64,000 nucleotides of DNA. Origin: Candidatus Binatia bacterium (GTDB taxonomy: Bacteria > Desulfobacterota > Binatia > UBA9968 > CAXXLF01). Positions 1,331 to 29,022 of the stretch are shown piece by piece. Below the pieces are notes generated by a model. That model worked only from the letters and a program-made list of their open reading frames with translations. It ran no database searches and had not been told where the DNA came from. Both the position numbers and the translations under genes were made by a program. Each line of letters begins with the position of its first letter. Position 1 is the stretch's first letter. The stretch is taken from the NCBI GenBank assembly GCA_963664015.2, contig CAXXLF010000001.1:1056001-1120000 (forward strand), in the 5' to 3' direction.

Positions 1331-2290
1331 TCAATCAAGATAACCGCACTGGCGCCAGAATCGCTCCGCCGCCGGGTGCAGGGGAACATCCAGGGGCCCC
1401 TCGGCGCTGTCTCGACACATACGCTCCAAAGGCAGGATCCCCTCACCTTGCCAGGGAATGATTTCTTTTCGCGCCTCCAACGCCGCACAAAAGGAAGCGA
1501 TGGTGTCATCGGGAACATCCGCGTGCGTAAAGACCGGCCAACCGCTAAAATCCAAGGAAGCGACGTCCGCGTCAAGATTGGGATGCTCGGCCTTGGCGAT
1601 GGTGACAGGGCGAAACCCCATGGTTTGCAGCCGCTCCAGTATCGATTCGTCAATGGTCAAGATACGCATTCCCGATTCAAGCGCCCGATCCCCCCACGAG
1701 TCCAGGCTTTCATCGAAGATGCCGTCCACCTCCCCGCGCTCGGCCATTTCCATTCGGGCCCGACCCGGCATTCCGGAATCGTACGTCACCCGGCCGCCCC
1801 AGGAAACGATGTCGTCGAGTGAAAATCCGGCCTGCGAGAGCACTTCGTTAACAAACAGATGCAGCGAATGGTTGGCCTGCCCGCGTAGCGAAACCCGGAG
1901 CGGGAACCGCCGTTCCCGTATATCCGAAAGGGAGACCAAGCCCGTTGCCGCTTTGACGGCGAGCACGAACGTGTCTGATGAAGGGATCACCGTGATAGCC
2001 CTCACGGGGATGGGCGCTTTATAGGGGCCCGTTCCTTTAAAGGCCAGGGTCAGCGGAGCCGAGGGGTTGATAATCGCAACATCCACCTCCCTGCGGGCGA
2101 CCTGGTCGATCCCATCGGGAGTGTCGCTGCCGACAAAGTTCAATTTCCAGGGACCGGGGCCCTGTTCCCGAAGACTGATCTGAGCCTGGGGGTAGGGAAA
2201 GGACCGATGGGCGACCAACTCGGATGTCACTTCCAGCATCAGCCGGGAACGGATAACCGAGGGTGACACACGATCGCTTTTCTTTTCCAT
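1331..2290 (-). CDS. TAXI-family solute-binding-fold protein, no signal peptide (paralog 1)
   Basis: C-terminal VPLHPAAERFW..GYL resembles the TAXI terminus; hydrophilic N-terminus. Confidence 0.75.
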   Translation of the reverse strand: MEKKSDRVSPSVIRSRLMLEVTSELVAHRSFPYPQAQISLREQGPGPWKLNFVGSDTPDGIDQVARREVDVAIINPSAPLTLAFKGTGPYKAPIPVRAITVIPSSDTFVLAVKAATGLVSLSDIRERRFPLRVSLRGQANHSLHLFVNEVLSQAGFSLDDIVSWGGRVTYDSGMPGRARMEMAERGEVDGIFDESLDSWGDRALESGMRILTIDESILERLQTMGFRPVTIAKAEHPNLDADVASLDFSGWPVFTHADVPDDTIASFCAALEARKEIIPWQGEGILPLERMCRDSAEGPLDVPLHPAAERFWRQCGYLD

Positions 2291-2367
2291 AAATGCTGCC
2301 TCTCTGGTTGATGGATGCTACGAGCGCATGTCCCAACCCGCTGTATCGGTGGAATTCAATTAACCGA

Positions 2368-3327
2368 TCAAGAGAGATAGCCGCGCCCGCGCCAAAAGCG
2401 CTCTGCCGCCGGATGCAGGGGAATGTCCAGGGGGGAATCCAAGCTGTCTCGACACATCCGCTCCAACGGTAGGGGCCCCTCTCCCTGCCACGGGACCGCT
2501 CCCTTGCGTGCTTCGAGGGCGGCGCAAAAGCAAGTGATGATATCATCCGGTACATCCGCACGGGTAAAGACCGGCCAACCGCTAAAATCCAGTGTCCAGA
2601 CATCCTCCGGAAGCTTGGGGTAGTCGGCCTTTTTAACCACTGCCCGACGAAAGCCCATGGCCTCCAGGCGCTTGAGAAGAGGCTCCTCCAAAGGCAGCAA
2701 ACGCATTCCCAGATCCAAAGCCTTGGGGGCCCAGGAATTCACGGCTTCGTCGAAAATGGCATCCGCCTCTCCGCGCTCCACGATACCGATACGCGTAGCT
2801 CCTGGAATTCCAGGATCATACCGCACTTTGCCGCCCCACGAGTTGATATCGTCCAGTGAGAAACCAAGGAGTGAGAACACATGATTGATGTGAAAATGGT
2901 CCGAATGGTTACGCTGGTCACGGAGCGAAACCCTGAGTGGGAAACGGCGTTCTTTCAAGTCCGATAACGATTTCAAGCCGGTGCTCTCGTGGACGGCAAA
3001 AACAAACTGGTCCAGCGACGGGATCACGGTAATGATCCGCAAGGGGATGGGTTCCTTATATCGACCGGTTCCCTTGAAAGCCAGCGACAGGGGGCCCGCC
3101 GGATTGATGATGGCGATATCCGACTTGCCCTGCGCTACCTCATCGATGGCGTCAGGCGTATCGCTCCCGAACAGATTCAACTTCCAGCTATCCGGCCCTT
3201 GCTCGCGCAGGCTCAAACGTGCCTGTCGATAAGGGAACTCCATCTTACCGACCATCTCGGAGGCCACCTCCAGTACGAGCCGAGAGCGGGTTATTGATGG
3301 AGGGAAATGAGGTATCTTGAAATCCAT
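2368..3327 (-). CDS. TAXI-family solute-binding-fold protein, no signal peptide (paralog 2)
   Basis: Close paralog of 1331..2290; start MDFK at 3327 after AGGAAAGG. Confidence 0.75.
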   Translation of the reverse strand: MDFKIPHFPPSITRSRLVLEVASEMVGKMEFPYRQARLSLREQGPDSWKLNLFGSDTPDAIDEVAQGKSDIAIINPAGPLSLAFKGTGRYKEPIPLRIITVIPSLDQFVFAVHESTGLKSLSDLKERRFPLRVSLRDQRNHSDHFHINHVFSLLGFSLDDINSWGGKVRYDPGIPGATRIGIVERGEADAIFDEAVNSWAPKALDLGMRLLPLEEPLLKRLEAMGFRRAVVKKADYPKLPEDVWTLDFSGWPVFTRADVPDDIITCFCAALEARKGAVPWQGEGPLPLERMCRDSLDSPLDIPLHPAAERFWRGRGYLS

Positions 3328-3404
3328 GTTGCTTTCCTTTCCTGGAGCCCAGGTTTTGCCGGTTGGCTGTGAGGGGGATGGGGCAATGATATTGCTTAAC
3401 GAGA

Positions 3405-4823
3405 CTAAAAGAGATCCTTCCACTTATCCAAAACACGGCTCCGAAGCTCGGGACTTGCAATATTGGTCTTGGGGAAATCCTTGATCCACTCGTAGGGCTT
3501 GCAGGCGTTGATAATGGCCCGGGAACTGGTGAGGTCTCCCTGTTTCTTTCGTTCAGGCGTCACCCGTGGATCCAGAGGGCTGGAAGGGCAGTCCTTGAGA
3601 ATGGATATGGTGGTCTCCGGGTCGCAGCGGGTTCCGATGGCCCAGAGAACATCTTCCGGGTCGCGGGGATTGATATCCTCATCCACGATCACGACAAACC
3701 GACCCATGTAATCGCCCGACGCCGCCAGACCAGCCTTCATGGCATGGCCGGGATATTGCTGGCGGATCTGAACCACGGTGAACCCCGGAACCCCCAAGGG
3801 CCAGACGTCAAGAACGTCGGTGATACCCGCCTTCAGGAGCTTTTCTTTATGGTTGGGTGCGTTGGTCGGGATGGCAAAGTGACTCCCTGTATGCCGATGA
3901 CGTACGGGAGGCATGCCCAGGATGATGGGATTGTTACGGTGATACAGCGCCTTGATTCGAATCACGGGTTCCGGCCTGGTCCCTGATGCGTAATACCCCG
4001 TCCACTCTCCAAATGGTCCTTCGTCTCTCGATTCCACCTCTGGTGGCGGGACCTCGCCCGCGATGACAATCTCCGAGGTAGCCGGGATAGGAACCCCTGT
4101 TACCGGTTCACGGACCACCTCGACGGGGGCTCCTCGAACATGTCCTACCAGCTCGTACTTAAACAATCCCCGCTTTTGGCCCAACATCGGCGCGGCAGCT
4201 AGAAATACGACAGGCTCCTGGCCGAAGGAAACCACCACCGGACAACTCTCACCCCTCTCCCAATACCTCTTTCGAATTATCGCTCCGGTCTTGGAGGGAG
4301 TGATATAAAGGCCGGCGGTCAGTTTGTCCTGGATCATCACCCGGTAGCAGCCGAAATTCACTTTACCGCTGTCAGGGTCTCTCATGTATACGACACAACC
4401 GGTCCCCAGATAACGTCCCCCATCGTCTTCGTGCCACCTCGGGGTGGGGAACTTCCAGAGGTCGATTCCATCTCCCGTCAGCACGTTTTCAAAGATCGGT
4501 CCCGTCTCAACTTCAACGGGAGGTACGGGCTGGTAGCAGGCTATCTTTTTTGCATAGGCATCCAGCGCGCCGTTCAGGTCGAGATCGAGGGGTAGGTCCA
4601 GCGCAAGGAGCGAACGGCGCAGGTTATCCATCGCATTGGTCAAAATACGATAGCCTTTCGGATAGCCTTTAATGGAGTCAAAGAGGAGGGCCGGACCCAG
4701 TCGTTCGTAGTTGAGTTCGGTAATGGTCCCGATCTCCAGGTCCCAATCGGCATCCTGGACAGACCGTAGCTCCTGGTTTTTATCCAGGGCCGCTACGAAC
4801 TCCCTTAAATCTCTGTATGGCAC
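3405..4823 (-). CDS. UbiD-family prFMN-dependent decarboxylase
   Basis: MPYRDLREF N-terminus, DGGRYLGT, EGPFGEWTGYY, VDEDI..VLWAIGTR. Confidence 0.93.
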   Translation of the reverse strand: MPYRDLREFVAALDKNQELRSVQDADWDLEIGTITELNYERLGPALLFDSIKGYPKGYRILTNAMDNLRRSLLALDLPLDLDLNGALDAYAKKIACYQPVPPVEVETGPIFENVLTGDGIDLWKFPTPRWHEDDGGRYLGTGCVVYMRDPDSGKVNFGCYRVMIQDKLTAGLYITPSKTGAIIRKRYWERGESCPVVVSFGQEPVVFLAAAPMLGQKRGLFKYELVGHVRGAPVEVVREPVTGVPIPATSEIVIAGEVPPPEVESRDEGPFGEWTGYYASGTRPEPVIRIKALYHRNNPIILGMPPVRHRHTGSHFAIPTNAPNHKEKLLKAGITDVLDVWPLGVPGFTVVQIRQQYPGHAMKAGLAASGDYMGRFVVIVDEDINPRDPEDVLWAIGTRCDPETTISILKDCPSSPLDPRVTPERKKQGDLTSSRAIINACKPYEWIKDFPKTNIASPELRSRVLDKWKDLF

Positions 4824-5199
4824 TTTGCTTTCCCCTTGGGATTATTAAACGTGGGACCAATCTCATTGTCGACTAAAGACTCGGTTCAATCGCCAGAGAT
4901 TTCCGCCCTATGCGTGTGATTGCCCCACCCACCGTAAACTTCCGCCAAGTACAGACAGTACCGTTTTACCTCAACCCTAGGTTCTACTCATTGCAGCGGG
5001 ATAAGGACAGATGCCAAGAACAGAAAGAGCAGCACCAGACCTAGCTGTCTAATTTCCATCATAAATTATTCGATCTTTCGTTGGAGCTACAAGGCGTTTA
5101 CACCACCCTGTAACTAGGCGCCATATACCAATATAGGCGATGAGCTGTCAAGCAAAGCCGATCCCGAGTTCAGCAGAGAGATTCCCAATCTCTACTCCC

Positions 5200-5248
5200 A
5201 AAAAAAGGGGAGCCCCCTAGAATTATCATTCCGAGGAAAGCTCGCCCC
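5200..5248 (-). terminator. Putative intrinsic terminator downstream of 5317..5724
   Basis: Imperfect GC-rich stem (GGGGCGAGC..GGGGGCTCCCC) followed by a T-run on the minus strand. Confidence 0.5.
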
Positions 5249-6060: not shown

Positions 6061-7464
6061 ATGAAAGGGTTACAGGAGTTTATTTCTGAATATGAGGCGG
6101 CCTTTCCGGACCTGGTCATCCATGTGGATAAGGAAGTGGACGCCCGTTGGGAAGCCTCGGCCATCGCGCTGAAGGCACAGAAAGAATTACGTGAGCCGCC
6201 GGTGCTTATTTTCAATCGGATTCGCACTACCACGGGGACCCTCTCCAAGTTTCCGGTGGTTTTGAATCTCTTCGCCTCACGCCAACGGGCCGCCTATGCC
6301 GTCGGTTCAGACTTTCAGCAAATTGGTCGAGATCTCTTCCAACGACGGGAGCAGCGAATCAAACCGGTTGTTGTCGACCGCCGCGACGCCTGTGTAAAAC
6401 AAGTAATCAAGACGGGAAATTCTGCCAATTTGCAGGAGATTCCGGCCCTTGTCCACGCCGCATGGGATCCGGGACCCTACGTGTCAGCGGGTTATATAAC
6501 CACTTACGATCCGGACTCGGGCGTCGACAATTGCGCCCTCCAACGGGGTTGGTTTTACGGCGAGAAGGAGATCCGTATTTTTCCCAACCGTGCCAGCCAT
6601 AATCGCTGGAACATCAATAAGCAAGAAAAACTCGGTCAAGACGCTAGGGTCGCCATCTGGATAGGTCATCACCCCGCTGTCTGCATGGGAGCTGAGGCAA
6701 AGATGGGGTATCCGTTGAGCCATTGGGATACCGCCGGCGGATGTCTGGGGGAACCTCTGAGGCTCGTGCCATCAGAGACCCTGGGAGACGACTTCCTGGT
6801 CCCCGCAGATGCCGAATTCGTCATCGAAGGCACTGTCCCCCAAGGCAAACTCAAACCGGAAGGGCCCTTTGGAGAATATACGAGGTATTTTGGCGCCCAA
6901 CGGCTTAACCCTTACATGGAAGTTACCTGCATCAGCCACCGGGAGAATGCCCTTTGGACGTCCATCATCACCGGGTACGCCGACGATCAAATTGGGGCCC
7001 TGCGCCGTGAAGGACTTGTCTTCGAAGCCGTGCAACGGGTAGTCCCACAGCTCCAGGCGGTCTATCGGCCCATGGCCGCTCCCCATCACATGTATTTACA
7101 AATTCGCAAAAACCACGATGCCCAACCCAGAGCCGCCATCATGGCAGCCTTGTCCGTACCCGACGCCATCAAGCATGTTTTCGTGTTCGATCAGGACGTG
7201 GATATCTTTGACGAGCAAGAGGTGCAATGGGCCATCGATACCCGGTCCGACTGGGCCAAAGACCTGATCGTCGTACCCAATCTGGAAGCATCCCACCTGG
7301 AGCCCACCACCAAGGGCGATGGGTTGGGAACTCGCGCAGGGATCGACTGCACCATACCTTCGCCGCCGGCGGTTTACGAGCAGCGCTCTTTCATTCCCCA
7401 GGATGTCATGGACCGTATCAAGCTTGACGACTATCTCCCCAAAGGGAAAGGAACATACCGGTAG
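6061..7464 (+). CDS. UbiD-family decarboxylase (paralog of 8935..10353)
   Basis: DPGPYVSAG, EGPFGEYTRYF, DVDIFDEQEVQWAIDTR. Confidence 0.92.
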   Translation: MKGLQEFISEYEAAFPDLVIHVDKEVDARWEASAIALKAQKELREPPVLIFNRIRTTTGTLSKFPVVLNLFASRQRAAYAVGSDFQQIGRDLFQRREQRIKPVVVDRRDACVKQVIKTGNSANLQEIPALVHAAWDPGPYVSAGYITTYDPDSGVDNCALQRGWFYGEKEIRIFPNRASHNRWNINKQEKLGQDARVAIWIGHHPAVCMGAEAKMGYPLSHWDTAGGCLGEPLRLVPSETLGDDFLVPADAEFVIEGTVPQGKLKPEGPFGEYTRYFGAQRLNPYMEVTCISHRENALWTSIITGYADDQIGALRREGLVFEAVQRVVPQLQAVYRPMAAPHHMYLQIRKNHDAQPRAAIMAALSVPDAIKHVFVFDQDVDIFDEQEVQWAIDTRSDWAKDLIVVPNLEASHLEPTTKGDGLGTRAGIDCTIPSPPAVYEQRSFIPQDVMDRIKLDDYLPKGKGTYR

Positions 7465-7509
7465 GATTCCACATCCCCAATTCACTGAAATCACGAAGGA
7501 AGGTATCTT

Positions 7510-8625
7510 ATGACAAATCAAGCTTCAAATCCGATAGGTGGCGCTTATGATGGCTGGGTCGCATCACAGGGGATACCGGTCCATGAAGGCTACTTCATTG
7601 AGGACATCAGGACCCTGGAGTTAGGTTGGTGGGAGGCGCGACAGTGCCACAGTGCCTTTATAAAACTGGCAGGCCAGGAAGGCGTCAGCGAAACCCGAGT
7701 CACGGAAATTCCTGCGGGCAAAACCCTTCCACCATCCAGGTTTTTGCTCGACGAAATTGTGTACGTGGGGGACGGACGGGGTATAGCCACGGTTTGGGGC
7801 AACGAAGACAGCCCAAAGCAGACCTTCGAGTGGCAGTCGAACAGCCTGTTTTTGATCCCGCGCAATTACGCGTGCCAGTTAAGCAATATGCAGGGGAATA
7901 AACCCGCCAGACTGCTCCATTACAACTACCTCCCGCTGGCCATGACCATTACGCCGGACCCGAAGTTTTTCTTTAACAACACGCACGTAGATCTAGAACT
8001 CTTGTACGGCAATGGTGGGGAATTTTATTCGGAGGCGAAGGCGGTGAGTGATACCGGGAGTTGGGCCGGGAGAGCGAGTGGCCGAAACATCTGGTTCGGC
8101 AATTTTTTCCCCGACATGAAGAACTGGGACAGGCTGGACACCCACGAGCACAGGGGGGCCGGGGGCAACGTCGTCCTGGTAAAATTTCCGAACTCGGCCA
8201 TGAAGGGACATATGTCGGTCTTCCCTTCCAATACTTACAAGAAAGCCCATCGTCATGGCCCGGGAGTGGTCATCGTGATCCCGTCGGGAGAGGGTTACTC
8301 CATCATGTGGCAAGAGGGGAAGGAAAAGATCGTCATCCCCTGGCATGAGGGCAGTGTGATGGTCCCTCCCGACCACTGGTTTCACCAGCACTTCAATATC
8401 GGGGGTAATCCAGCCCGGTACCTGGCCTTCCACTCGCCGGAAGGACTCGTCGGGTACAGTGAAAAGGTGGAAGAATTAGCAAAGGATCAGATCGAATATC
8501 CCGATGAAGACCGCCAGGTACGGGATACGTTCGAGGCGGAGCTTGGCAAGAGGGGAATCAAGTCTCTGATGCCTGTAGCGGCCTATCAGGATCGGAACTA
8601 TGCGTGGAGCTACCCATCGAGCTAA
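7510..8625 (+). CDS. Bicupin, gentisate 1,2-dioxygenase-like
   Basis: C-terminal cupin KKAHRHGPG..WFHQHFN; AAGGAGG RBS. Confidence 0.85.
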   Translation: MTNQASNPIGGAYDGWVASQGIPVHEGYFIEDIRTLELGWWEARQCHSAFIKLAGQEGVSETRVTEIPAGKTLPPSRFLLDEIVYVGDGRGIATVWGNEDSPKQTFEWQSNSLFLIPRNYACQLSNMQGNKPARLLHYNYLPLAMTITPDPKFFFNNTHVDLELLYGNGGEFYSEAKAVSDTGSWAGRASGRNIWFGNFFPDMKNWDRLDTHEHRGAGGNVVLVKFPNSAMKGHMSVFPSNTYKKAHRHGPGVVIVIPSGEGYSIMWQEGKEKIVIPWHEGSVMVPPDHWFHQHFNIGGNPARYLAFHSPEGLVGYSEKVEELAKDQIEYPDEDRQVRDTFEAELGKRGIKSLMPVAAYQDRNYAWSYPSS

Positions 8626-8692
8626 AGAACGGTGTTTTCTATGTCGATTCTGATCAGGACTAATCCCGGGACCGGGCCATCGGGGAACCTTA

Positions 8693-8727
8693 TTGACAGC
8701 CACCGGGGGATGTCGTAAACCCCGTAC
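8693..8727 (+). promoter_or_regulatory. Sigma70-like promoter / conserved box upstream of UbiD 3
   Basis: TTGACA-N17-TAAACC; near copy of 5846..5880. Confidence 0.6.
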
Positions 8728-8934
8728 CATAGGAAGTGGATGTTGTTATTCCGGCAGGGCGAACGTTGGCCCATGGGCAAGATTTAGAACAGGGCTCGTT
8801 CCGCTGGATGGGGTGTGGATTTAAGAGCCCAACGCCCTAATGCCAATTAGGATAACGGAAAATGAAGAGAACTTGCAGTTGGTCAATAATCCATAAACCA
8901 GGACATCAATTTAATAGGCAATAGGGGAGTTGAT

Positions 8935-10353
8935 ATGAAGGGTGCAAAGGTTCAAGGTTTACAGGAATTTTTAACGACGTACGAAGAGGCGTATCCAAAC
9001 ATGGTGGTGCATGTGCACCAGGAAGTGGATGCCCGTTACGACGCAGCGGCCATCGCCCTCAAAGCACAGAAGGAGCTTCGCGAAGCCCCCGTCTTTATCT
9101 TGCACAAACTTCGCACCATTACCGGGAAGATCTCACCCTTTCCGGTCGTTTTGAACCTCTTTGCATCCAGACAGCGTTCCGCCTTCGCCGTCGGATCGAC
9201 CTTTGAAACACTGGGCTGTGACCTGTACGAGATGCGCTCGAAACGAATCAAGCCGGTGGTGGTAAACCGCAGCGAGGCGTCGGTAAAACAAGTGGTCAAG
9301 ACCGGCGATTCCGCAAATCTGGAAGAGATCCCGGGCCTCGTCCATGCCGCTTGGGATCCGGGACCCTACGTGTCAGCGGGTTATTTAACCACTTACGACC
9401 CGGATACGGGTATCGACAACTGCGCATTGCAGCGGGGATGGCTTTACGACAAGAAGGAGCTCCGAATTTTTCCCAATCGTGCCAGCCATAACCGATGGAA
9501 CATTAACAAGTGGGAGGAACGGGGCGAAAACGCAAAGGTCGCCTATTGGGCCGGGCACCACCCTGCCGTATGCATGGGGGCGGAGGCTAAGATGGGATAC
9601 CCGCTGAGTCATTGGGATGCGGCTGGTGGCTGTATCGATGAACCGTTGCGGCTGGTGCCATCGGAGACGTTGGGAGACGACTTCCTCGTCCCCGCCGATG
9701 CCGAGTTCGTGATTGAGGGAGTCGTCCCCAAGGGAAAACTCAAGCCTGAAGGACCCTTTGGAGAATACACCCGGTACTTCGGCGCCCAACGGCTGAATCC
9801 CTATATGGAGGTGACCTGCATCAGCCATCGGAAGAATGCCCACTGGGTATCGATTCTCACAGGTTACGCAGACGATCAGATTGGCGCGTTACGCAGGGAA
9901 GGAAGCGTTTTCTCTGCGGTCCAAAGAGTGGTGCCGCAGATCAAACATGTTTACCGCCCGATGCCCGCGCCGCATCATATGTACATTCAGATCCGAAAGA
10001 CCCACGACTCCCAGCCGCGCATGGCGATCATGGCGGCGCTATCATTGCCCGATGGAGTGAAACACGTCTTCGTTTTTGACGAGGATGTGGATATCTTCGA
10101 TGAGCAGGAAGTCCAGTGGGCCATCGATACCCGGTCCGACTGGGCCAAGGACCTGATCGTTGTCCCCAACCTCCATGCCAGCAACCTGGATCCGTCCACG
10201 ACCGGCGGTGGCCTGGGAACAAGGGCGGGGATTGACTGCACCATACCGTGTCCACCGGCAGTGTACGAGCAGCGCTCGTTTATTCCGCAGGAGGTCATGG
10301 ACAGGATCAAACTTGCGGATTATCTACCTAATGGAAAAGGAAACAATCGTTGA
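8935..10353 (+). CDS. UbiD-family decarboxylase (paralog of 6061..7464)
   Basis: Same motifs, with long identical peptide stretches shared with UbiD 2. Confidence 0.92.
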   Translation: MKGAKVQGLQEFLTTYEEAYPNMVVHVHQEVDARYDAAAIALKAQKELREAPVFILHKLRTITGKISPFPVVLNLFASRQRSAFAVGSTFETLGCDLYEMRSKRIKPVVVNRSEASVKQVVKTGDSANLEEIPGLVHAAWDPGPYVSAGYLTTYDPDTGIDNCALQRGWLYDKKELRIFPNRASHNRWNINKWEERGENAKVAYWAGHHPAVCMGAEAKMGYPLSHWDAAGGCIDEPLRLVPSETLGDDFLVPADAEFVIEGVVPKGKLKPEGPFGEYTRYFGAQRLNPYMEVTCISHRKNAHWVSILTGYADDQIGALRREGSVFSAVQRVVPQIKHVYRPMPAPHHMYIQIRKTHDSQPRMAIMAALSLPDGVKHVFVFDEDVDIFDEQEVQWAIDTRSDWAKDLIVVPNLHASNLDPSTTGGGLGTRAGIDCTIPCPPAVYEQRSFIPQEVMDRIKLADYLPNGKGNNR

Positions 10354-10362
10354 GGATTAACC

Positions 10363-10530
10363 ATGGATAAAGTCAGTTATGTGACATGCCCGGGCTGCAG
10401 TCGTGATTTTTATGTGGAGCGTTCCGAGTATGCAGGGCATCCGGAAGCGCCCTGCCAGTGCCCCTTTTGCCTCCGTGAGTTCACGGCGGGAGAAGGCAAC
10501 CCGCGACCACCCCTTACAGTCAATCAATAG
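10363..10530 (+). CDS. 55-aa zinc-ribbon protein (CxxC..CxxC), candidate UbiD accessory subunit
   Basis: Absent from the ORF track. GAGGA RBS, 9 nt after the UbiD stop: MDKVSYVTCPGCSRDFYVERSEYAGHPEAPCQCPFCLREFTAGEGNPRPPLTVNQ. Confidence 0.85.
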   Translation: MDKVSYVTCPGCSRDFYVERSEYAGHPEAPCQCPFCLREFTAGEGNPRPPLTVNQ

Positions 10531-10544
10531 CCGTCGGCTTGGAC

Positions 10545-10601
10545 CGGTCCCTTCCGCTTGAAGGGGCCGAGTCTTTAGCTCGGGTAGCCGGTGCTACCCG
10601 A
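10545..10601. terminator. Two hairpins between convergent genes
   Basis: CGGTCCCTTC/GAAGGGGCCG and TCGGGTAGC/GCTACCCGA inverted repeats; no clear U-tract. Confidence 0.4.
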
Positions 10602-10607
10602 TAAGAG

Positions 10608-11723
10608 TTAGCTTGCCTGGTAATTCCACTCGTAATCGACGTTTTGGTATGCCTCTTGGGGCATCAGGGACTTGAGTCCCTTGCGTGCGAGTTCTTCGTC
10701 GAATTTTTCACGGATCCAGGGGTCTTCGTTAGGGTACTCGATTTGATCGTTTCTCCGGTCCTCTACCCTCTCGCTGTAGCCGCTTAGACCCTTGGGGGTG
10801 CGAAGCGCCAGGTACCTCGCCACTGCCGAGGTGACGTTGAAGTGCTGGTGCAACCACCGATTGGGTGGCACGAAGACACTTCCCTCATGCCAGGGAATAA
10901 CGATCTTTTCCTTCCCCTCTTGCCACATGATGGAGTACCCTTCGCCCGACGGAATAACGATGACCACTCCCGGGCCATGGCGATGCGCTTTTTTATAACT
11001 TTGAGCGGGAAAAACCGACATGTGTGAACAAATCGTCGCGTTGGGGAATCGGATATGGACAACCTTGCTTCCCCCTCCCCGTCCGGTTTGATTGTTGAGC
11101 TTGTCCCAACTACGCATGTCGGGAAAGAAATTCCCATACCAGATATCCCGATTTGTTAACCCCCCTATCCCGCCCTGGATCCTTTTGGCCTGGGAGTAAA
11201 AATCTTCATCATGCCCGTTGGTCTTACCAAAGTCTGCCGCAAAGGAATTCTGAAAAAAGAAATTAGGATCCGGTGTAACGGACATGGCCACAGGTAGGTA
11301 GTTGTAATGGAGGAGCCTTGCGGGACTGTTACCTTGCATATTGCTTAGCTGTCGAAAGGTGTTACGAGGGATCAGGAACATGCTGTGCTTCTGCCACTCG
11401 AAGGACTTTTTGGCTTCTCCCTCAGTGCCCCACACAGTAGTAACCCCACGCCCTTCGGCGACGTATACAACCTCATCCAGAGCGAAACGTAATGGGGGAA
11501 GAGTTTTGCCTGCCGGGATTTCCGTCACCCGGGCCTCACTGATCCCCTCCTGCCCGGTCAGCCTTAAAAAAGCGGCCTGGCACTGACGCTCCTCCCACCA
11601 GCCCAGCTCCAAGGTCCTGATATCCTCGACATAGTAGCCTGCGTGAATCGGGACGCCCTGCGATTGGACCCAATGCTCATAAGGATCCATCAGGTTTGTT
11701 AAATCTAACCTATCGTTGGCCAT
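10608..11723 (-). CDS. Bicupin, paralog of 7510..8625
   Basis: Start MANDRL at 11723 after GGGGGA; KKAHRHGPG and LHQHFN motifs. Confidence 0.85.
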   Translation of the reverse strand: MANDRLDLTNLMDPYEHWVQSQGVPIHAGYYVEDIRTLELGWWEERQCQAAFLRLTGQEGISEARVTEIPAGKTLPPLRFALDEVVYVAEGRGVTTVWGTEGEAKKSFEWQKHSMFLIPRNTFRQLSNMQGNSPARLLHYNYLPVAMSVTPDPNFFFQNSFAADFGKTNGHDEDFYSQAKRIQGGIGGLTNRDIWYGNFFPDMRSWDKLNNQTGRGGGSKVVHIRFPNATICSHMSVFPAQSYKKAHRHGPGVVIVIPSGEGYSIMWQEGKEKIVIPWHEGSVFVPPNRWLHQHFNVTSAVARYLALRTPKGLSGYSERVEDRRNDQIEYPNEDPWIREKFDEELARKGLKSLMPQEAYQNVDYEWNYQAS

Positions 11724-11986
11724 ACATTTCCCCCCTATGTTTCTTTTAATTAGCGATATTGAAATGGATTTGTCAACTTGGCCTTCCTTTCGATACCCAG
11801 ACACCATGGCAGAGTGATTCGTTTTGAAAACCCAAGATCCCTGCAAGTTGACTACAGCCGCGCTTTTATCTGCTTGACTTTGCACTCGTCCATATAATAA
11901 GAAAGACAAAATAATAAGAGAGAGAAACCTAGTTTTTCCAATGAAATCGACAATTTCCATATATCCATGAGAGCATAAATCCACCG

Positions 11987-13084
11987 ATGAGCAAAACAAA
12001 AGCATTGATGGGGTTTATCTTGATACTCTTTTTTACCGGCACAGCTTTTTCTGCCTCGCTGCCAAAATCGACACAGGACCTGTTGAAGCAATTTGATCTC
12101 GACCCCGCCTTGCTGGCAGACATCGACCAGGAGCTGGCGGTCCCCAAGAAATGGATTGAGGAGGCAAAAAAGGAAGGTAAGTTAAGAATTCGGTCTACGC
12201 CGGCCCGACCGGACGACCTGAGAACCCTCCTGGGTCCATTCAAAGCGCGCTATCCGTTCATTGACGTCGAGTTTTCCGGGACCAACCAGCAAACTCGTTC
12301 TGTCCGGACGCTGATGGCCTACAAGAGTGGACGCATCCTCGCAGATTTTATGAACAGTATTGGTGGCTTCATGCATGAATACAAAGCGGCCAACGCTCTC
12401 GAAAATCTTAATGACATCCCGGGCGTCCAACGTATCGCCGAAAAGGCCAAAGACCCCACTGGTGAGTGGTCGGGAATCAACCAGAACTACTGGTGTATAT
12501 CGTACAATACGAGGCTGCTAAAATCCGAAGACCTTCCGAAAAAATGGGAAGATCTTTTGACCAACTCCAAGTTCCACAATGGGAACCTGGCCCTGGGCAA
12601 TCGACCCCAGCTTATCTTTGTGGCTTTATGGGCAGCGAAAGGTGAAAAGTGGACCAAAGACTTTATCTATAGGCTGTTTACTGAAGTCAAACCTCAGTTA
12701 CGCAAGGAAGGCATGAACCTGCTTCCCCAGTTGGTGGCAGCCGGCGAATTCAACGCAGCCATGCCATCCAATAACAAGCGTCCCTACCAGCTCAAGCTTA
12801 ATGGAGCGCCCGTCGGTTTCACCTGTCCTGAACCCGTCCCCACATCTACGGAAGATTCCATAATTTTGAAAGGCGGCAATACGGCCACGGCCAAGATCTT
12901 TCTAAATTGGCTTTTAAGCAAGGAGGGTCAGATCGCCCAATATGCTTTTGAATACGCAACCCCGCTGAACGATCAACTCCGCGCCAAGCTCCTTCCCTTT
13001 TCCGACCAGATTCTGGGCAGGGAGAATAGCTTTCGAGACCGCGACTTTGAGATGAAGATCATGCCGGACCTCTCAAAGTTCTGA
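11987..13084 (+). CDS. ABC transporter substrate-binding protein (Fe3+/polyamine-like family), probably C-terminally clipped
   Basis: Signal peptide; EEAKKEGKL, ISYNTRL, LPKKWEDLL, FLNWLLSKEGQ. The frame continues 13 codons past the TGA to 13126. Confidence 0.85.
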   Translation: MSKTKALMGFILILFFTGTAFSASLPKSTQDLLKQFDLDPALLADIDQELAVPKKWIEEAKKEGKLRIRSTPARPDDLRTLLGPFKARYPFIDVEFSGTNQQTRSVRTLMAYKSGRILADFMNSIGGFMHEYKAANALENLNDIPGVQRIAEKAKDPTGEWSGINQNYWCISYNTRLLKSEDLPKKWEDLLTNSKFHNGNLALGNRPQLIFVALWAAKGEKWTKDFIYRLFTEVKPQLRKEGMNLLPQLVAAGEFNAAMPSNNKRPYQLKLNGAPVGFTCPEPVPTSTEDSIILKGGNTATAKIFLNWLLSKEGQIAQYAFEYATPLNDQLRAKLLPFSDQILGRENSFRDRDFEMKIMPDLSKF

Positions 13085-13122
13085 AGTAAACTGTGGCTTA
13101 GCGGGGGTGGCGCCGCCAGACG

Positions 13123-13299
13123 ATGACGATCAGTCGGATCGGAACCACAATAGCAACTGAACTGGGAATGGGATCTAGCGCGGCGGCACTGCTGCTACCG
13201 TGACGCCCCCTCTGGGCCACTAGCATGACGACCTTGACGGTTGTCGATGGGAGCACTTGGCTTCCACCGACATTTGGGTTAAGGGAAAGAGTACTATGA
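13123..13299 (+). pseudogene. Collapsed remnant of the ABC permease gene
   Basis: One frame with ATGA overlaps at both ends and an internal TGA at 13201; lies where the permease should be. Confidence 0.5.
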
Positions 13300-14396
13300 T
13301 AAGTATCGAAAATCTTCACATGCGCTACCGGTCAGAGATGGGGGAGGTCCATGCCGTCCGCGGGATCAATATCAATGTGAAACCGGGGCAGTTCTATACC
13401 ATGCTGGGACCCAGTGGATGCGGCAAGACCTCTACCTTGAGATCGGTAGCGGGCCTGGAGACCCCCGACGAAGGGGAAATCACCATTGGGGATGCATTGG
13501 TCTTTTCATCTTCCAAGGGTATCAACGTTCCTCCTTACAAACGGGATATCGGTATGGTGTTCCAATCCTACGCCATCTGGCCTCACATGACCGTGTACAG
13601 CAACGTCGCATTTCCTCTCGAGGAGATGGGTCGTAAATTCAACTCGGCAGAAATACGGGAGAAGGTCCTAACGGCACTGTCTCTTGTTCAATTGGACGGT
13701 TTGGAAGACCGTCCTGCACCCTTTTTAAGTGGCGGCCAGCAACAGAGGCTGGCCCTGGCACGGGCGCTGGTCAAAGAGCCACGGGTCTTACTGCTGGATG
13801 AGCCCTTGAGTAACTTGGATGCAAAGCTCCGGGAAGAAACACGCCTGGAGGTGAGGGAGTTGGTCAACCGACTCGGCATTACGACGCTCTATGTGACCCA
13901 TGATCAGCTCGAGGCGTTGACCATGTCCGATGTTGTAGCCGTAATGAACCAAGGGGAGATCATCCAGGAAGCCCCACCCAACGAAATCTATCAAGCACCG
14001 ACAGAACGCTTTGTTGCTAATTTCATCGGTCTGGCAAATTTTCTGGAGGGCGAGGTCAATGCGCTTCCCAGTAACGGGCAAGGCTTCGGCGAGGTCAAAA
14101 CCTCTGGCGGCATCATGAGATGCACGCTCCCAGATGGAGTTGGGATCGGAGAAAAGGTCGTCATCCTCGTACGTCCGGAGGACGCCAATCTAGTAGACAG
14201 CTCCTCTACAATCCAGGGCAACGTACTCAATGCCAGCGTCGATGCGGTTATATACATGGGGGACACCCTGGAGTGCCGGGTCATCACGGGGGGACAGACG
14301 ATAAAGATCAAACTTCACCCCTCCTCCACGCTGGCCCGGGGCGACACCGTGCGCTTGGAACTTCCACCGAGCCGCTGTCGCGCAATCAAAGCTTGA
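13296..14396 (+). CDS. ABC transporter ATP-binding protein (PotA/FbpC-like, TOBE domain)
   Basis: GPSGCGKT, LSGGQQQR, LLLDEPLSNLD, YVTHDQ. Confidence 0.93.
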   Translation: MISIENLHMRYRSEMGEVHAVRGININVKPGQFYTMLGPSGCGKTSTLRSVAGLETPDEGEITIGDALVFSSSKGINVPPYKRDIGMVFQSYAIWPHMTVYSNVAFPLEEMGRKFNSAEIREKVLTALSLVQLDGLEDRPAPFLSGGQQQRLALARALVKEPRVLLLDEPLSNLDAKLREETRLEVRELVNRLGITTLYVTHDQLEALTMSDVVAVMNQGEIIQEAPPNEIYQAPTERFVANFIGLANFLEGEVNALPSNGQGFGEVKTSGGIMRCTLPDGVGIGEKVVILVRPEDANLVDSSSTIQGNVLNASVDAVIYMGDTLECRVITGGQTIKIKLHPSSTLARGDTVRLELPPSRCRAIKA

Positions 14397-14441
14397 GGTC
14401 CCCCATCCCAAAGGGGATATACCAACCCCATTGCACTGACG

Positions 14442-14576
14442 ATGTTGACTCACCAGGAAAATGAGCTACTCACTCGCGTCGGGCCCGGCACACCCGGGGG
14501 CCGGATGCTCCGCTGCTACTGACAATCTGCACTTCTGTCCGAAGACCTTCCTAAGAAAGGAAACCCCAAAGCCGTG
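14442..14576 (+). pseudogene. N-terminal fragment of a phthalate-dioxygenase-like Rieske oxygenase
   Basis: MLTHQENELLTRVGPGTPGGRMLRCY*QSALLSEDLP matches the LLTRVGPGTP.G..LRRYW.P family start; TGA sits at the Trp position and the gene is truncated. Confidence 0.7.
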
Positions 14577-14626
14577 TGGAGGTGGACTAGCGAATCTCCG
14601 GTAGAGACTTTCCCCGCGGCACATCC

Positions 14627-15727
14627 TCATCCCCCGCTTTGGTTCAGAGGCATGAGTCTGGTGGTGATGCCGTTTTTTTCCAGCTCCCGATAGTATTCTT
14701 CGCGGATTGTCGGATCTTCCATCTCATAGGTGATGTTGAAAGCCCACGCTTGACGGTCTTTACTCTGGGCACTACTCGAAACGATCTCGTAATCTCGGCC
14801 CCACCCATAGCGGCTGCCAAAGCCTCGGAATGCCAGCATTCGGAACGGCCCCTTGCCCGTATTCAGGTGCTGGTGAAATTCATTGTGCACAGGCGCCACG
14901 ACGGAATAAGGTTTGAGGGGTATCTTGCGTCGATTCTTCTCCTCCTCGGTCATAAAGAGCAGTTCGTAGCCCTCTCCCTGGATCACGATCACATGGGCAT
15001 TGGGACCATGGCGGTGCGCCGTCATATAGGTCCCTTCAACAATCTCGTTGACATGCATGCCCATGGAAGTCGCGGCCATGGAAAGCTGGATCACTGTGTG
15101 GCGTATTCCACGGATCGGGTTATCATCCAAGGGCAGGGTTCTAATATCCGGAATAAAGTTCGTCTCTAGTATTCGATGCTCCCAATGAATTCCTTCATCA
15201 CCAAAGACACTGTGCATGGCATGGGAATAACGGTCTTTGAACGAAAAAGGGTTATTAAATATGAAGTCCAGGTTGTGATAAAAGTTGATCGCATAGGCCA
15301 TGTTGGTCCCAAAGAGAAACCGGCACGGCTCATCGGCGGAACTGTTGAACTCCTGATGCCACGCGTTGAGGGGGATGGCGAGGAGGGCCCCTTCTTCCCA
15401 TTCAACGGTTTGTTTTGGTTCCCCTTCCTGCCATATCGTGGTAGCGCCCCTCCCCTTCATGACATACATGATCGCATCATAGACATGATGCTCCGGCTTG
15501 AGCTGTCCCTTGGGAGGGATCTCTACTATCTGAAGATTGTAGTTCTCTTGATCTCCCAAACGGGTGTATGCGGCCTTTCCGCCCCGTCTCTCCCAGTCCG
15601 CGACGGGCAGCGTGGCAAGGTCCTCGAGGGCACTGCCTTCGTATAGTGGGACCCCTTCACTTTTGACAAAGTCCTGATAGGAACTCTTGACATACCAGTC
15701 TTTAAAACCCTGAAGCGCCTTAGACAT
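14627..15727 (-). CDS. Bicupin with His motifs in both domains
   Basis: KPEHHVYD..AWHQEFN and TAHRHGP..FHQHLN. Confidence 0.85.
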   Translation of the reverse strand: MSKALQGFKDWYVKSSYQDFVKSEGVPLYEGSALEDLATLPVADWERRGGKAAYTRLGDQENYNLQIVEIPPKGQLKPEHHVYDAIMYVMKGRGATTIWQEGEPKQTVEWEEGALLAIPLNAWHQEFNSSADEPCRFLFGTNMAYAINFYHNLDFIFNNPFSFKDRYSHAMHSVFGDEGIHWEHRILETNFIPDIRTLPLDDNPIRGIRHTVIQLSMAATSMGMHVNEIVEGTYMTAHRHGPNAHVIVIQGEGYELLFMTEEEKNRRKIPLKPYSVVAPVHNEFHQHLNTGKGPFRMLAFRGFGSRYGWGRDYEIVSSSAQSKDRQAWAFNITYEMEDPTIREEYYRELEKNGITTRLMPLNQSGG

Positions 15728-19138: not shown

Positions 19139-19830
19139 TTTGAATGCCTACCAATCCTATGATCCGGTGATCCGAAGATTCCTATGCCACCATGCGGAAG
19201 CTCCCGACAAGCGCAGACCATGACAGTGAAAGCTCAAATTTTACGTGAATTGTTTGGTTTGTACCACAAAGTATCGAGGAATTCCACGGGGTATCAGAAT
19301 GCACTAGTATTGAATCGGGACGATCCCGTTCACGGAATGTACGAAAACGGCAGGCCGATCCTCAATAACGAGCGACTTCGACCTGGACCTTAGCGGCGGG
19401 GCCGAAAGGCGGGCTGCAAAACGTCATTCGGAAAGCAGCGTCTGTCCACCGAATCTATATCACCAGGTATAGAAAAACACTAACCAGGACAACTAAAAGT
19501 ATATACTTCTTTGGATCCTTCTCCGGCTCTAGCTTCATTGCTCCCTCCTAAGCGTTTGATGCCCTGATAAACGAGCAGAATACATGCCATACGGAACGAC
19601 CGCTGATGCCGTGGCGGACCATTGACCGGAGGTCTGAAGCCCAACACAATCTTTAAAAATCTACAGATTGTAATCGGTCAGGGGATATCCCTGCCATACC
19701 GAGTCAGAGCTTGGAAACGAGACGCACGCCCCTTCGGTGAGCCAAGGTGACCGAGTTGCGCATGGAACCTGGCTTGTGAACGATCACAAGAATTGACTCG
19801 GTCAAAAACTGATGGGTTGTGGAATCCTCT

Positions 19831-20241
19831 TCATGGGCAAGTTTTCACATCGGTCTTCACATAGGGCGGTGTGTTAATCTCAAAGTGGATGCCGGCTGGG
19901 CTAGTCACCTTGTTCTGTCGCCGATCCCGGGCGGGCTCCTCGACGTCGAACCCATGGGCGCGGAGCCGGGCGGTCAACTCATCGACTTCCGCATCCGTGG
20001 CAACGTCAAAGGCTAGATGGTTCAGGATGCATTGGCTCTGGCCGTAACCCGCAACCGGGCCGTCAACTGCATAAATAATAAACTCATGATCCCTCAGCGG
20101 GTCGGAGGTGAAAAAGGCGTTTCGATCTCCTTGCCTCACCAGTTTAAGCCCAACGATCTTTTCCCAGAAATCGCACTCCTGCTGAAAAAGCTCTCGGGGA
20201 ACATTAAACCCTGTATGACTCAACCTTGCCAACGTCGCCAT
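19831..20241 (-). CDS. VOC/glyoxalase family protein
   Basis: LSHTGF, LNHLAF, FEIN metal-ligand pattern. Confidence 0.85.
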   Translation of the reverse strand: MATLARLSHTGFNVPRELFQQECDFWEKIVGLKLVRQGDRNAFFTSDPLRDHEFIIYAVDGPVAGYGQSQCILNHLAFDVATDAEVDELTARLRAHGFDVEEPARDRRQNKVTSPAGIHFEINTPPYVKTDVKTCP

Positions 20242-20491
20242 TGAAAACGGCCCTCCTTTCCTCTCATGGTCAGGGGCTCGATCACGGAAACGGGTCTTGT
20301 GAGCCTTTGCGCCCTGTTTACCTCACGGGTCCGGCCAAGGCCAAGTGGGTCGCCGGCTATTGCAGTCCCAGCAATATTATCCAATCGCCCTATCAAGGCG
20401 GCAGCTCATCAGGGATCCCTACTCAGGAGCGTTCTTATGATTCAAGGCGCCGAGTTCAGAACGAAGGAACTCGAACGGCTCCGGGGAACTA

Positions 20492-20920
20492 CTATTTTTT
20501 ATCGAACCGGGCTTTGAGAGCGTCGGGAGTCGTGAATCGATGAGGCGGTGTATTGATTTCGAAATCAATTCCCGCCGGACTAGTCACTTTGTTTTGATTA
20601 CGGCCCATGGAGGTTTCGTCCACCTGAAATCCGTGAGCACGGAACCGTGCCGTCAATTCGTCAACTTCCGCATTTGTCGCCACATCAAATGCCAAGTGAT
20701 GTAAAATACATTCGTCCTGACCGTGCCCTGTAACGGGTCCATCCACTGCGAACAGAATAAACTCATGGTCTCGTAGTGGGTCAGCTGAAAAGAACGCTCC
20801 TCCATCGATCCTTCGGACCAGGGTGAGACCGACAAGGTTCTGCCAAAAATCGACCTCTTTCTCAAAGATTTCCTTCGGGACCTTGAATCCCACATGACTT
20901 AACCTTCCAAATGTCGCCAT
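20492..20920 (-). CDS. VOC/glyoxalase family protein (tandem paralog)
   Basis: Highly similar to 19831..20241; GGAGG RBS before ATG 20920. Confidence 0.85.
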   Translation of the reverse strand: MATFGRLSHVGFKVPKEIFEKEVDFWQNLVGLTLVRRIDGGAFFSADPLRDHEFILFAVDGPVTGHGQDECILHHLAFDVATNAEVDELTARFRAHGFQVDETSMGRNQNKVTSPAGIDFEINTPPHRFTTPDALKARFDKK

Positions 20921-21109
20921 GATACCTCCCTTGTCTGCCTCAAACACTCTCACGAAAAAGACAGGCCTTTTCTATCGTGTTGTAGCGAAGGTTGTCAATA
21001 GGGAAGGAAGTAGAACGCGGTTCAACGCCTGGGTGGATTGAAAAAGACGGCATCGAGATTATACTAAGCTTGCCTCCCCTCATCGGTCGTTCTCAAGCTC
21101 CTCTTTCTT

Positions 21110-22279
21110 TCAGTCAGTTGGATCGCTCATTCGTGCATCTTTCTCGAAATATTTACGCAGGTCAACGATTGAGCTGTCAGGCCTAAATAGCTGCTCTGGC
21201 GCCGAATAGTCCAAGTGTTCCACTATCCACTTGTCTTGTCCCTCGTTGAACCATTTGTGGAACACCCAACGATGCCAAAGCCAATATTGCAGTCGAAATG
21301 CCAGCGCTTTTAGTCCATGAAACCGTCCGGCCAACATCTGAAAGTTGCGAGTGTGTTTTGCATCGATAGGGACAGACCACCGGACATGGGTATAGTAAGT
21401 ATAGTGGTTCACGATAACGCATGGAAGGCGGAAGGCTTGAATCATAGGTTTGCCCTTAGGGCCGAAGTTTTTACGAGCTCTAGCCAGAGCTTTTCGTAAC
21501 CAAGTGTGACGCGGCCAGAGGCCGAAGCCCGGATAATTTGCCTCAAACCCGATAGGACCCCGCCGCCTCTGAACCAGATATTTACCTTGTACTTCACTTT
21601 CTACCTTCCCAGCCCAGGCCGGCGGGAGGTTAAACTGGGTTTGCCACCGGAAGCTGTACCTATGGACGTACGTGGCGTGGGACGCGTCGTACCCGTTTTC
21701 AACCGCAGCACGCCAATTACTCTTCCAGACGGAGGTGACGGACTCAAAAACGTATTCCGGTTGCAACACTTCTTCCGGAACATCTTCCTCGATTGCCGGC
21801 GGGTTGCCGTCTCCCATGTATACGTAGATGACTCGATTTCGCTCCTCCACCGGGTAGCTGCGGACCCCTTTTCCCTTCTTGCCCACAACCGTCGACTCAG
21901 GCCCGTCCGTTAGAGCCGCAATTAACTCGCCGTCGCGCAAGTTGTACGTCCACCCATGATACGGACACGTTATTATGCCTTCCGACCAGCACTTGCCTTC
22001 GGACAATGGCATGCCCCGGTGCGCACATCGATCAAAGAGCGCATAGGGCCGTTTGTTGACTCGCACAAATACCAGTTTCTCGCCAAGTAGCATGACAGAT
22101 TTTGGTTTCTTCCCAAGCTGCCTGGAAAGGAGCGCAGGATACCAATAGTGGCGGAACCCCAATTCGGCAGCTTCATAACGCGCTCCTTTTGTGCTTCGCA
22201 GCTGTTGGTCCTGCTTTGTCGCAGTATATTCTTCCTCCTTGGCGACTCCATCATGTAATTGACTCACTGCATTAGCCAT
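21110..22279 (-). CDS. Rieske non-heme iron oxygenase, CarAa/OxoO-like
   Basis: CAH..CPYH Rieske motif; NWRAAVENGYDASH..VH iron site. Confidence 0.88.
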   Translation of the reverse strand: MANAVSQLHDGVAKEEEYTATKQDQQLRSTKGARYEAAELGFRHYWYPALLSRQLGKKPKSVMLLGEKLVFVRVNKRPYALFDRCAHRGMPLSEGKCWSEGIITCPYHGWTYNLRDGELIAALTDGPESTVVGKKGKGVRSYPVEERNRVIYVYMGDGNPPAIEEDVPEEVLQPEYVFESVTSVWKSNWRAAVENGYDASHATYVHRYSFRWQTQFNLPPAWAGKVESEVQGKYLVQRRRGPIGFEANYPGFGLWPRHTWLRKALARARKNFGPKGKPMIQAFRLPCVIVNHYTYYTHVRWSVPIDAKHTRNFQMLAGRFHGLKALAFRLQYWLWHRWVFHKWFNEGQDKWIVEHLDYSAPEQLFRPDSSIVDLRKYFEKDARMSDPTD

Positions 22280-22526
22280 TATACGACCCCCCTTAGCGAC
22301 CTCGAAGATCACATCTTTAACCACACGCACTTGCCTTGCCTAGTCAGCTTAAGCCTTCCGTAATCCGATTACCCGGACCATGACGATCTCACTCCCTTGA
22401 AAACATTGCCCAATAGACGGCTGCAAATGACAGGGTGACAATGTTATCCCAGTAGTACCTAAATGACCCTTGTGTCAATCCGCTTATCCGAATCGAATTT
22501 CGCCGTATGTCTGACCCGGGTGACAC

Positions 22527-23489
22527 TCAGGCCAGATAACCGCGGTCGCGCCAAAACCGTTCGGCGGCAGGGTGAAACGGAATAACCAACGGGGTATCGG
22601 GTGTATTGCGGCACATGCGTTCCAGGGGAAGCGGGCCTTCGCCCTGCCAGGGGATCCGATCCCTGCGGGCCTCCAGGGCCCGGCAGAAAGCCGTGATGAA
22701 ATCGTCGGACATGTCCGCATGGGTGAATACGGCCCATCCGCTGAAGTCGAGGCTCACCACGTCGGCCGGTAATTTGGGGTAGTCCACATTGGGGATGACA
22801 CCGCGCCGGAAGCCCATCTCTTCCAGCCTGGCCAGGTGCGACCCACCAAGCGATAGTGGCCGAATGCCATAATCCAGCGCCTTGTAAACCCAGCGATTAA
22901 TCGCCTCGTCAAAGACGGCGTCGATTTCCCCCCGCTCTATGGCGCCCAGGCGCTCGGCGGACTGGGGAATGGTTGCGTCGTAACGGATCTCGCCGCCCCA
23001 GGATATTATGTCATCCAACGAAAAACCCGCGGCCTGAAGTACCTGCTTGATATAGAAGTGCGTGGAATGGCCATGCTGTTTTCTAAGCGATACGCGAAGC
23101 GGGACCCGCCGCTCGCGGATCTCTTCGAGCGACGTGAGACCCGTGCGCTCTGAGACGGCGAAGGCGATCTGATCTTCCGAGGGGATCACCGTGACGATTC
23201 TGAGGGGTAATGGCTCGTTATACGGTCCTGTCCCACGATAGGCCAGCGCCAGGGGATCCACCGGGTTCATGATTGCGACCTGGACCCTTCCCGACACCAC
23301 CTCGTCTATGACCTCCGGGTCATCGCTGGCAAAGAGGGTCAGGGGCCAGCCGGCGGCTCCCTGCCGCCGCAGGCTCACCGTAGCCTGCCGTTGCACCCAA
23401 TCCTCTCCCCCCACCAATTCCGACGCCACCTCAAGCATCAGCCGTGACCGCGTAGTGGCCGGCACGACGAATTGTCCATGATCGATCAT
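22527..23489 (-). CDS. TAXI-family solute-binding-fold protein, no signal peptide (paralog 3)
   Basis: RSRLMLEVASEL, LDFSGW and PFHPAAERFW shared with paralogs 1 and 2; AGGAG RBS. Confidence 0.75.
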   Translation of the reverse strand: MIDHGQFVVPATTRSRLMLEVASELVGGEDWVQRQATVSLRRQGAAGWPLTLFASDDPEVIDEVVSGRVQVAIMNPVDPLALAYRGTGPYNEPLPLRIVTVIPSEDQIAFAVSERTGLTSLEEIRERRVPLRVSLRKQHGHSTHFYIKQVLQAAGFSLDDIISWGGEIRYDATIPQSAERLGAIERGEIDAVFDEAINRWVYKALDYGIRPLSLGGSHLARLEEMGFRRGVIPNVDYPKLPADVVSLDFSGWAVFTHADMSDDFITAFCRALEARRDRIPWQGEGPLPLERMCRNTPDTPLVIPFHPAAERFWRDRGYLA

Positions 23490-28997: not shown

Positions 28998-29022
28998 ATA
29001 GGCTTCAACCTTGGTTTAGACT

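Follow-up and report, generated by a model that had tools for sequence, protein, structure and literature searches.

A leaderless family of TAXI-fold proteins in Candidatus Binatia, probably a binding-protein fold recruited to the cytoplasm as an enzyme

A window of 64,000 nucleotides from a Candidatus Binatia bacterium (contig CAXXLF010000001.1, positions 1,056,001 to 1,120,000 of the forward strand) carries three genes, here called copies 1, 2 and 3, whose products resemble the binding subunits of TAXI-type TRAP transporters. The three proteins have the TAXI-type two-lobed fold and no hydrophobic leader, and no TAXI permease was found at the loci of the family to which they belong. The comparison of genes and genomes gives good support to the view that this is not a TAXI transporter subunit but an undescribed cytoplasmic family, and the binding-protein fold was probably recruited to the cytoplasm as an enzyme. 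We see about an even chance that the members are enzymes of the cytoplasm that use acid-base chemistry on (hetero)aromatic acids or ring-fission products. Leaderless TAXI proteins were not described in anything that our full-text searches turned up, most subscription journals and supplements lying outside their scope.

The three proteins are 56-65% identical in pairwise comparisons, and the motifs RSRLxLEVxSE, LDFSGW and PxHPAAERFW are present in each. All of them pass PF16868 with 36-40 bits (cut-off 27) and miss the cut-off of 84.35 bits of TIGR02122, the model for the TAXI-TRAP solute-binding subunit, with 36.1, 39.0 and 54.3 bits. The ESM Atlas returned PF16868 clusters and nothing else. 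Leaders were called throughout by a hydropathy test and not by SignalP. Within the first 45 residues of copies 1-3 the top 19-residue Kyte-Doolittle mean was only 0.47-0.69, and so there is no hydrophobic leader. The earliest in-frame starts would lengthen the proteins by just 0, 32 and 17 residues and bring in no signal-like n/h region, and close homologues use the same start methionine. The upstream starts, the homologue starts and the family-wide leader test described next rule out that a leader was missed through a wrong start call.

Family loci and canonical TAXI loci were put through the same kind of scripted test, in which permeases were searched for with phmmer and then with a hidden Markov model built from the control permeases. 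The family loci were the best 80 of 247 relatives from species genomes. Their flanks reached up to 8 kb, many contigs being shorter, and those of the canonical loci 1.5 kb; the leader test took in only the 57 family genes with enough upstream frame. A hydrophobic leader was found in none of these 57 genes, whereas 24 of 29 canonical TAXI proteins had one. A TAXI permease was present at 24 of 30 canonical loci and at 0 of the 80 family loci. Of the 87 loci in a second, mixed set, 84 were classified and 32 carried the Asp/Glu motif of the family. Leaders were found in 0 of the 24 testable members among them, and a permease-like match at one of the 32, on the opposite strand in a separate operon 2-3 kb off. 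TAXI binding proteins, as described in PMC5812351 and PMC11574862, are extracytoplasmic and operonic with a fused DctQM. A preliminary description of this DNA had proposed three paralogues with the above motifs and without hydrophobic N-termini, belonging to an undescribed cytoplasmic family. The open reading frames (ORFs) lie where it placed them. Neither export signals at the true starts nor homologues consistently beside TAXI permeases, the observations that it had named as contradicting it, turned up, and the proposal is well supported.

The host genome (3.5 Mb, 97% complete) contains nine family copies, one of them split over two reading frames. It has no TIGR02123 match over the cut-off that would indicate a TAXI permease, and DctM is found at just two loci, both broken and at least 72 kb from any family copy. 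A partner permease elsewhere in this genome was rejected on these grounds. The two DctM loci (C1:114645-115885 and C2:2087402-2088546) are in pieces, with stops and frame changes. A fragmentary DctP-like ORF lies upstream of the first and a DctQ-like ORF at the second, both named from sequence; TRAP transport may be decaying in this genome. The split copy (C2:353308-354329) directly follows two MoeA-like ORFs, likewise named from sequence, and is a pseudogene or an assembly error. Among 35 other carrier genomes, 25 have TAXI permeases elsewhere and 10 gave no full TAXI permease; the carriers are metagenome-assembled genomes (MAGs), and incomplete ones may hide genes. One of them (G122) is a single-chromosome assembly with 11 family copies in which no TAXI permease was found.

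We next turn to the cleft. Conservation was assessed in 50 diverse members with a mean column identity of 34%, collected with a profile that favours such conservation. Six columns were invariant in 50/50 members, namely P76, D106, G165, E195, H306 and A309. Since H306 and A309 belong to a C-terminal motif common to all TAXI proteins, the polar invariants that are particular to this family are D106 and E195; both columns vary among 29 canonical TAXI proteins. In the profile alignment to VcGluP, which gives positions by alignment and not by coordinates, N75 falls on Q93, D106 on E125 and D194/E195 on Y200/M201. These VcGluP residues line its glutamate site, which uses no Arg or Lys as described in PMC11574862. 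The family cleft is predicted to be charged, unlike the VcGluP site. Among 86 close members, R14, N75, D106, D194, E195, S250 and G251 are kept in 86/86, R136 in 85 and H141 in 83, whereas positions 77-78, 105, 176 and 197-199 differ by subfamily. In the diverse set H141 is kept in 36/50 and D194 in 44/50. Members with only about 25% identity still have the acid pair, as do both of the N-terminal topologies. An enzyme family that applies one chemistry to many substrates would look like this, its acid pair fixed and the rim around it variable.

The two topologies concern the start of the protein. In the window clade the N-terminus is reordered, with helix-strand-strand instead of strand-helix-strand, and its alignment to TAXI chains begins only at residue 38-48. 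For P0190, a distant member, the alignment starts at residue 1-4 and meets the very beginning of the mature TAXI chains, as a clean deletion of the leader would leave it.

We propose that the family descends from a TAXI-type binding protein that, after the loss of signal peptide and permease, turned into a cytoplasmic enzyme, and that it then expanded alongside (hetero)aromatic catabolic operons. A carboxylated substrate would be bound by Arg14, Arg136, Asn75 and His141 as the two lobes close over it. Asp106 and Glu195 would form a cofactor-free general acid/base pair or, less likely, be the ligands of one metal ion, and specificity may be set by the positions that differ between subfamilies. 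The likeliest reaction class would be a lyase step, either proto-decarboxylation or dehydration/hydration, with a hydroxylated (hetero)aromatic acid or its ring-fission product as substrate. A lyase step takes the larger share of the even chance that we give to an enzyme of this kind, and a hydrolase or isomerase step the rest.

Enzymes with the type II periplasmic-binding-protein fold are known from other binding-protein branches and include Thi5, DszB, 4,5-dihydroxyphthalate decarboxylase, cyclohexadienyl dehydratase and MqnA/MqnD. As in such recruited enzymes, the family keeps the fold, has lost the transporter context and has invariant polar residues at predicted cleft positions. No sequence similarity to these enzymes was detectable, the profile matches being TAXI chains or chance only, and in the fold matches Thi5, DszB and 4,5-dihydroxyphthalate decarboxylase scored no better than unrelated binding proteins. 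The enzyme reading has precedent because cyclohexadienyl dehydratase evolved from an amino-acid binding protein and employs a Glu as general acid, as reported in PMC7683729. A TAXI-derived enzyme was not found in our searches. The fold is common to the family and the TAXI-TRAP binding proteins VcGluP (8s4j/9ibo), those of T. thermophilus (1us4/8u79) and Ehrlichia (4ddd) and VCA0144 (9ibp). Unlike these, the family stays at 36-54 bits in TIGR02122, has neither leader nor DctQM permease and combines the invariant Asp/Glu with Arg/His in its cleft; the window clade also differs by its reordered N-terminus, while the distant member aligns to them almost from its first residue. Some proteins that match binding-protein profiles are cytosolic according to a survey (PMC9602780), and PMC10443332 gives glutamate as the single structurally known ligand of PF16868.

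Orthologue groups, defined at 70% identity, are associated with particular enzyme genes. In the window, the order UbiD, copy 2, copy 1, molybdenum (Mo) enzyme has intergenic gaps of 77, 77 and 117 nt and is preserved at L014 and L015; across the group this arrangement occurs in 2/2. Copy 3 sits between an HsaD/BphD-like hydrolase and a homotrimeric-type Rieske oxygenase, and its orthologues have the Rieske oxygenase downstream in 7/7 and a cupin upstream in 4/7. A Zn-alcohol dehydrogenase lies upstream in 16/27 of one group and a secreted NMT1-type binding protein in 13/17 of another, while a third has a thiamine pyrophosphate (TPP) enzyme upstream and a LigB-like gene downstream (2/2). Flavin monooxygenases, VOC, cupin, CoA transferase, dienelactone-hydrolase-like and FAH-family genes are found near distant members.

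Several of our observations weigh against an enzyme. No partner is universal, and the partner gene changes between orthologue groups. The host genome has a high enzyme background, with 68 Rieske, 53 UbiD, 70 amidohydrolase and 73 cupin ORF matches (fragments counted). The family has on average 3.3 enzyme matches within 5 kb, counted in classes drawn from its own neighbourhoods; 75 secreted binding proteins of this genome have 2.64, and random sites 1.54. Moreover, 33 of these 75 binding proteins have no ORF with at least five membrane helices within 3 kb. Because the enzyme background is high and orphan binding proteins are common, a position among enzymes and away from a transporter is weak evidence in this lineage. 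The fixed acid pair is also compatible with the binding of one shared chemical group. The diagnostic features are therefore the missing leader and the cleft, and the predicted cleft Asp/Glu together with the subfamily-specific operons favour an enzyme. The preliminary description had called the family enzymes or intermediate carriers in aromatic catabolism. The cleft and the operons speak for the first of these, which stays conditional with an enzyme-rich setting nearly as common for secreted binding proteins. The neighbourhood statistics that it had suggested bore out the missing permease and traced the enzyme setting in part to the lineage. Both gene contexts that it gave for the three copies were confirmed, with its "Mo-hydroxylase" and "ring-fission hydrolase" as family-level calls that stay below the NCBIfam cut-offs.

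An alternative is a non-catalytic cytoplasmic binder, which would sequester or hand on a reactive or toxic intermediate, or would sense a pathway metabolite and regulate a partner in the manner of the CmpC/NrtC domains, which have the binding-protein fold. We hold this to be possible, with a clearly smaller chance than an enzyme. The closest structures are non-catalytic and CmpC/NrtC regulatory domains are among the fold matches, highly varied partners fit a generic accessory, and one orthologue group adjoins secreted binding proteins, as given above. However, canonical TAXI proteins vary at the cleft positions at which the family keeps its acid pair through low identity and both topologies. 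Fusions to DNA-binding, ATPase or kinase domains were absent among the 3 longer homologues found, a sample that carries little weight. In one of these (P0335, 663 aa) the family domain is fused in frame to a ketopantoate-reductase-like (ApbA) enzyme, which counts for the enzyme reading; the case stands on one contig only and could be a read-through error. In the second (P0336) an apparent fusion to a secreted NMT1 binding protein was rejected, for the homology is lost mid-way and it looks like a frameshift. The N-terminus of the third (P0337) had no match in the local set.

It is improbable that the family still consists of transport receptors, which would have to leave the cytoplasm without a classical leader or to serve in trans a TAXI permease, an ABC system or some other carrier encoded elsewhere. 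Most carrier genomes do have TAXI permeases elsewhere, orphan binding proteins are common in the host genome, and the partner of a TAXI protein may be a non-TRAP carrier such as GltS, as described in PMC12344293. The lipoprotein TAXI protein with GltS of Bordetella pertussis (BP0403) is the one described exception to the DctQM pairing. Like the family, BP0403 and the orphan TRAP/TTT binding proteins (PMC12344293, PMC5812351) have no adjacent TRAP permease. BP0403, however, is described with a lipoprotein leader and one more domain, and with GltS encoded next to it; the family proteins are leaderless and of one domain, and their neighbours are mostly enzymes. Most of the orphan ABC/TTT binding proteins have kept their leaders (60/75), and so has the GltS-linked TAXI protein, whereas the family has 0/57 and 0/24. 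The single-chromosome genome with its eleven copies and no TAXI permease also speaks against a receptor, and the reordered N-terminus and the altered cleft depart from TAXI receptors.

Slightly less probable still is a carrier that would bring a metal, oxyanion or cofactor to the metalloenzymes nearby (Mo/W, Fe, Mn, Zn) and would bind the metal through D106/E195: the neighbours are mostly metalloenzymes, the broken ninth copy follows MoeA-like ORFs and 4/8 host-genome loci have a Mo-enzyme large subunit within 6.5 kb (about 7.6% expected), but only 5/37 copies in four other genomes come that close (about 6.5% expected; binomial P 0.09; hand count), the other potential ligands H141 and D194 vary, and no annotated Mo enzyme is present in the stretches fetched around the Aminobacter and Phaeobacter members. 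With the Mo-enzyme link strong in the host genome and weak in the four others, a molybdenum-cofactor carrier was rejected.

A word-seeded search brought together 1,939 proteins (E up to 1e-5). In an exhaustive profile search there were 203 clusters (50% identity) within E 1e-30 and 877 within 1e-10, and the weaker tail takes in ordinary TAXI proteins. The 80 loci are mostly titled Ca. Binatia/Deltaproteobacteria or Chloroflexota; farther relatives in the family are carried by Hymenobacter, Aminobacter and Phaeobacter plasmids and are also present in Microbacterium. The occurrence is patchy, with 2/121 sampled genomes of the host phylum (the window's own counted) and 7/401 genomes sampled around an alphaproteobacterial MAG (that MAG counted). 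The 35 carriers examined have 1-11 copies, mostly 4-11. Three copies of equal score and length lie on three contigs of one genome (G141; C6:6121, C7:8691 and C14:587600), from recent duplication or an assembly repeat.

The Aminobacter plasmid pAA02 (L002) and the Phaeobacter plasmid pP11_c (L003) have in common a cluster of MhpA-like monooxygenase, FAH-family, VOC, IclR and dienelactone-hydrolase genes with leaderless members. The gene types resemble hcdABCR, and because these gene sets suggested an hcd cluster, we considered whether the family is a gene of the 7-hydroxycoumarin (hcd) cluster. This was ruled out, since HcdD, E, F and G as described in PMC7913881 and PMC13468388 have other folds. 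The TAXI gene of the Sagittula polycyclic aromatic hydrocarbon cluster, as described in PMC11705938, is canonical with its own permease and was ruled out as a member. Another TAXI lineage in Ca. Binatia-type genomes (L094, L098 and L102 in G150, G132 and G140) passes TIGR02122 and has no leader, no permease within 1.5 kb and no Asp/Glu motif; one of its loci adjoins an isochorismatase-family gene. This is possibly an independent move to the cytoplasm. A Cys-rich TAXI-like group with paired Cys in the N-terminal part (L135, L141-L143, L146, L148-L150 and others) has neither a permease match nor the Asp/Glu motif.

The features of the window are listed in Table 1. Six-frame searches, with Pfam run on 55 selected ORFs, gave no match to DctM or TIGR02123 in the window. 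The preliminary description had spoken of no transporter, which is right for TRAP membrane genes and has to be amended for an ABC binding protein and ATPase, present without a permease. Beside this pair, window positions 6061-15727 hold two more UbiD paralogues and three related bicupin genes. At 27104-31279, next to an integrase and near smpB, lie genes for a myo-inositol-1-phosphate synthase and a nucleotidyltransferase/CDP-alcohol phosphotransferase fusion, a pair that we take to be of the di-myo-inositol-phosphate type, and a DUF4202 gene; the group is possibly on an integrated element. Elsewhere in the host genome, a phthalate-type island (C1:298080-312900) comprises three Rieske oxygenases, a GFO dehydrogenase, a TPP enzyme, a family copy and two LigB-like genes. 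It also holds a signal-less binding-protein-fold gene that presumably resembles 4,5-dihydroxyphthalate decarboxylase. DNA contigs from two public runs, possibly the window's own source, match window positions 837-5000 without differences. Two RNA runs gave only four contigs of 151-154 nt within family genes, at a depth of about 3. Promoter and terminator scans gave chance level only.

Table 1. Family genes and neighbouring features in the window
Feature	Coordinates	Strand	Remarks
Xanthine-oxidase-family molybdoenzyme large subunit	2..1213	-	runs off window; PF02738, PF01315; NCBIfam below cut-off
Copy 1 (P0001), leaderless TAXI-fold protein	1331..2290	-	319 aa; PF16868 36.5 bits, TIGR02122 36.1 bits
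Copy 2 (P0002), leaderless TAXI-fold protein	2368..3327	-	319 aa; tandem with copy 1, 65% identical
UbiD-family (de)carboxylase	3405..4823	-	directly upstream of tandem pair; PF01977/PF20695/PF20696; TIGR00148 over cut-off
Secreted ABC binding protein	11987..13084		between the two family sites
ABC ATPase	13257..14396		between the two family sites; no permease alongside
Rieske oxygenase, homotrimeric CarAa/OxoO type	21110..22330	-	downstream of copy 3; PF00355, PF11723
Copy 3 (P0003), leaderless TAXI-fold protein	22527..23489	-	320 aa; structure modelled
HsaD/BphD-like alpha/beta hydrolase	23724..24614	-	upstream of copy 3; PF00561; NF045632 215 bits (cut-off 400)

On a broader scale, we put at slightly below even the chance that these proteins form a superfamily of enzymes descended from TAXI proteins, with an Asp/Glu active site of its own and two N-terminal topologies, in Ca. 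Binatia, Chloroflexota, Actinomycetota, Alphaproteobacteria and Bacteroidota. Mis-annotated as transporter subunits, its members would account for a step in many (hetero)aromatic routes to which no enzyme is yet assigned, be it decarboxylation, dehydration/hydration or ring opening, with a different substrate for each orthologue group. If the family is enzymatic, a large group labelled "TAXI transporter subunit" (203 clusters) is mis-annotated, and a TAXI branch would be added to the few known cases of binding proteins turned enzymes. Direct testing is feasible because there are cultured carriers, namely Phaeobacter gallaeciensis, Aminobacter aminovorans, Hymenobacter and Microbacterium. Even a non-catalytic binder would mean that the TAXI fold serves in the cytoplasm in a way not described before. 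The orthologue groups mark specific operons in abundant uncultured lineages, in which the aromatic and N-heterocycle pathways are largely unassigned.

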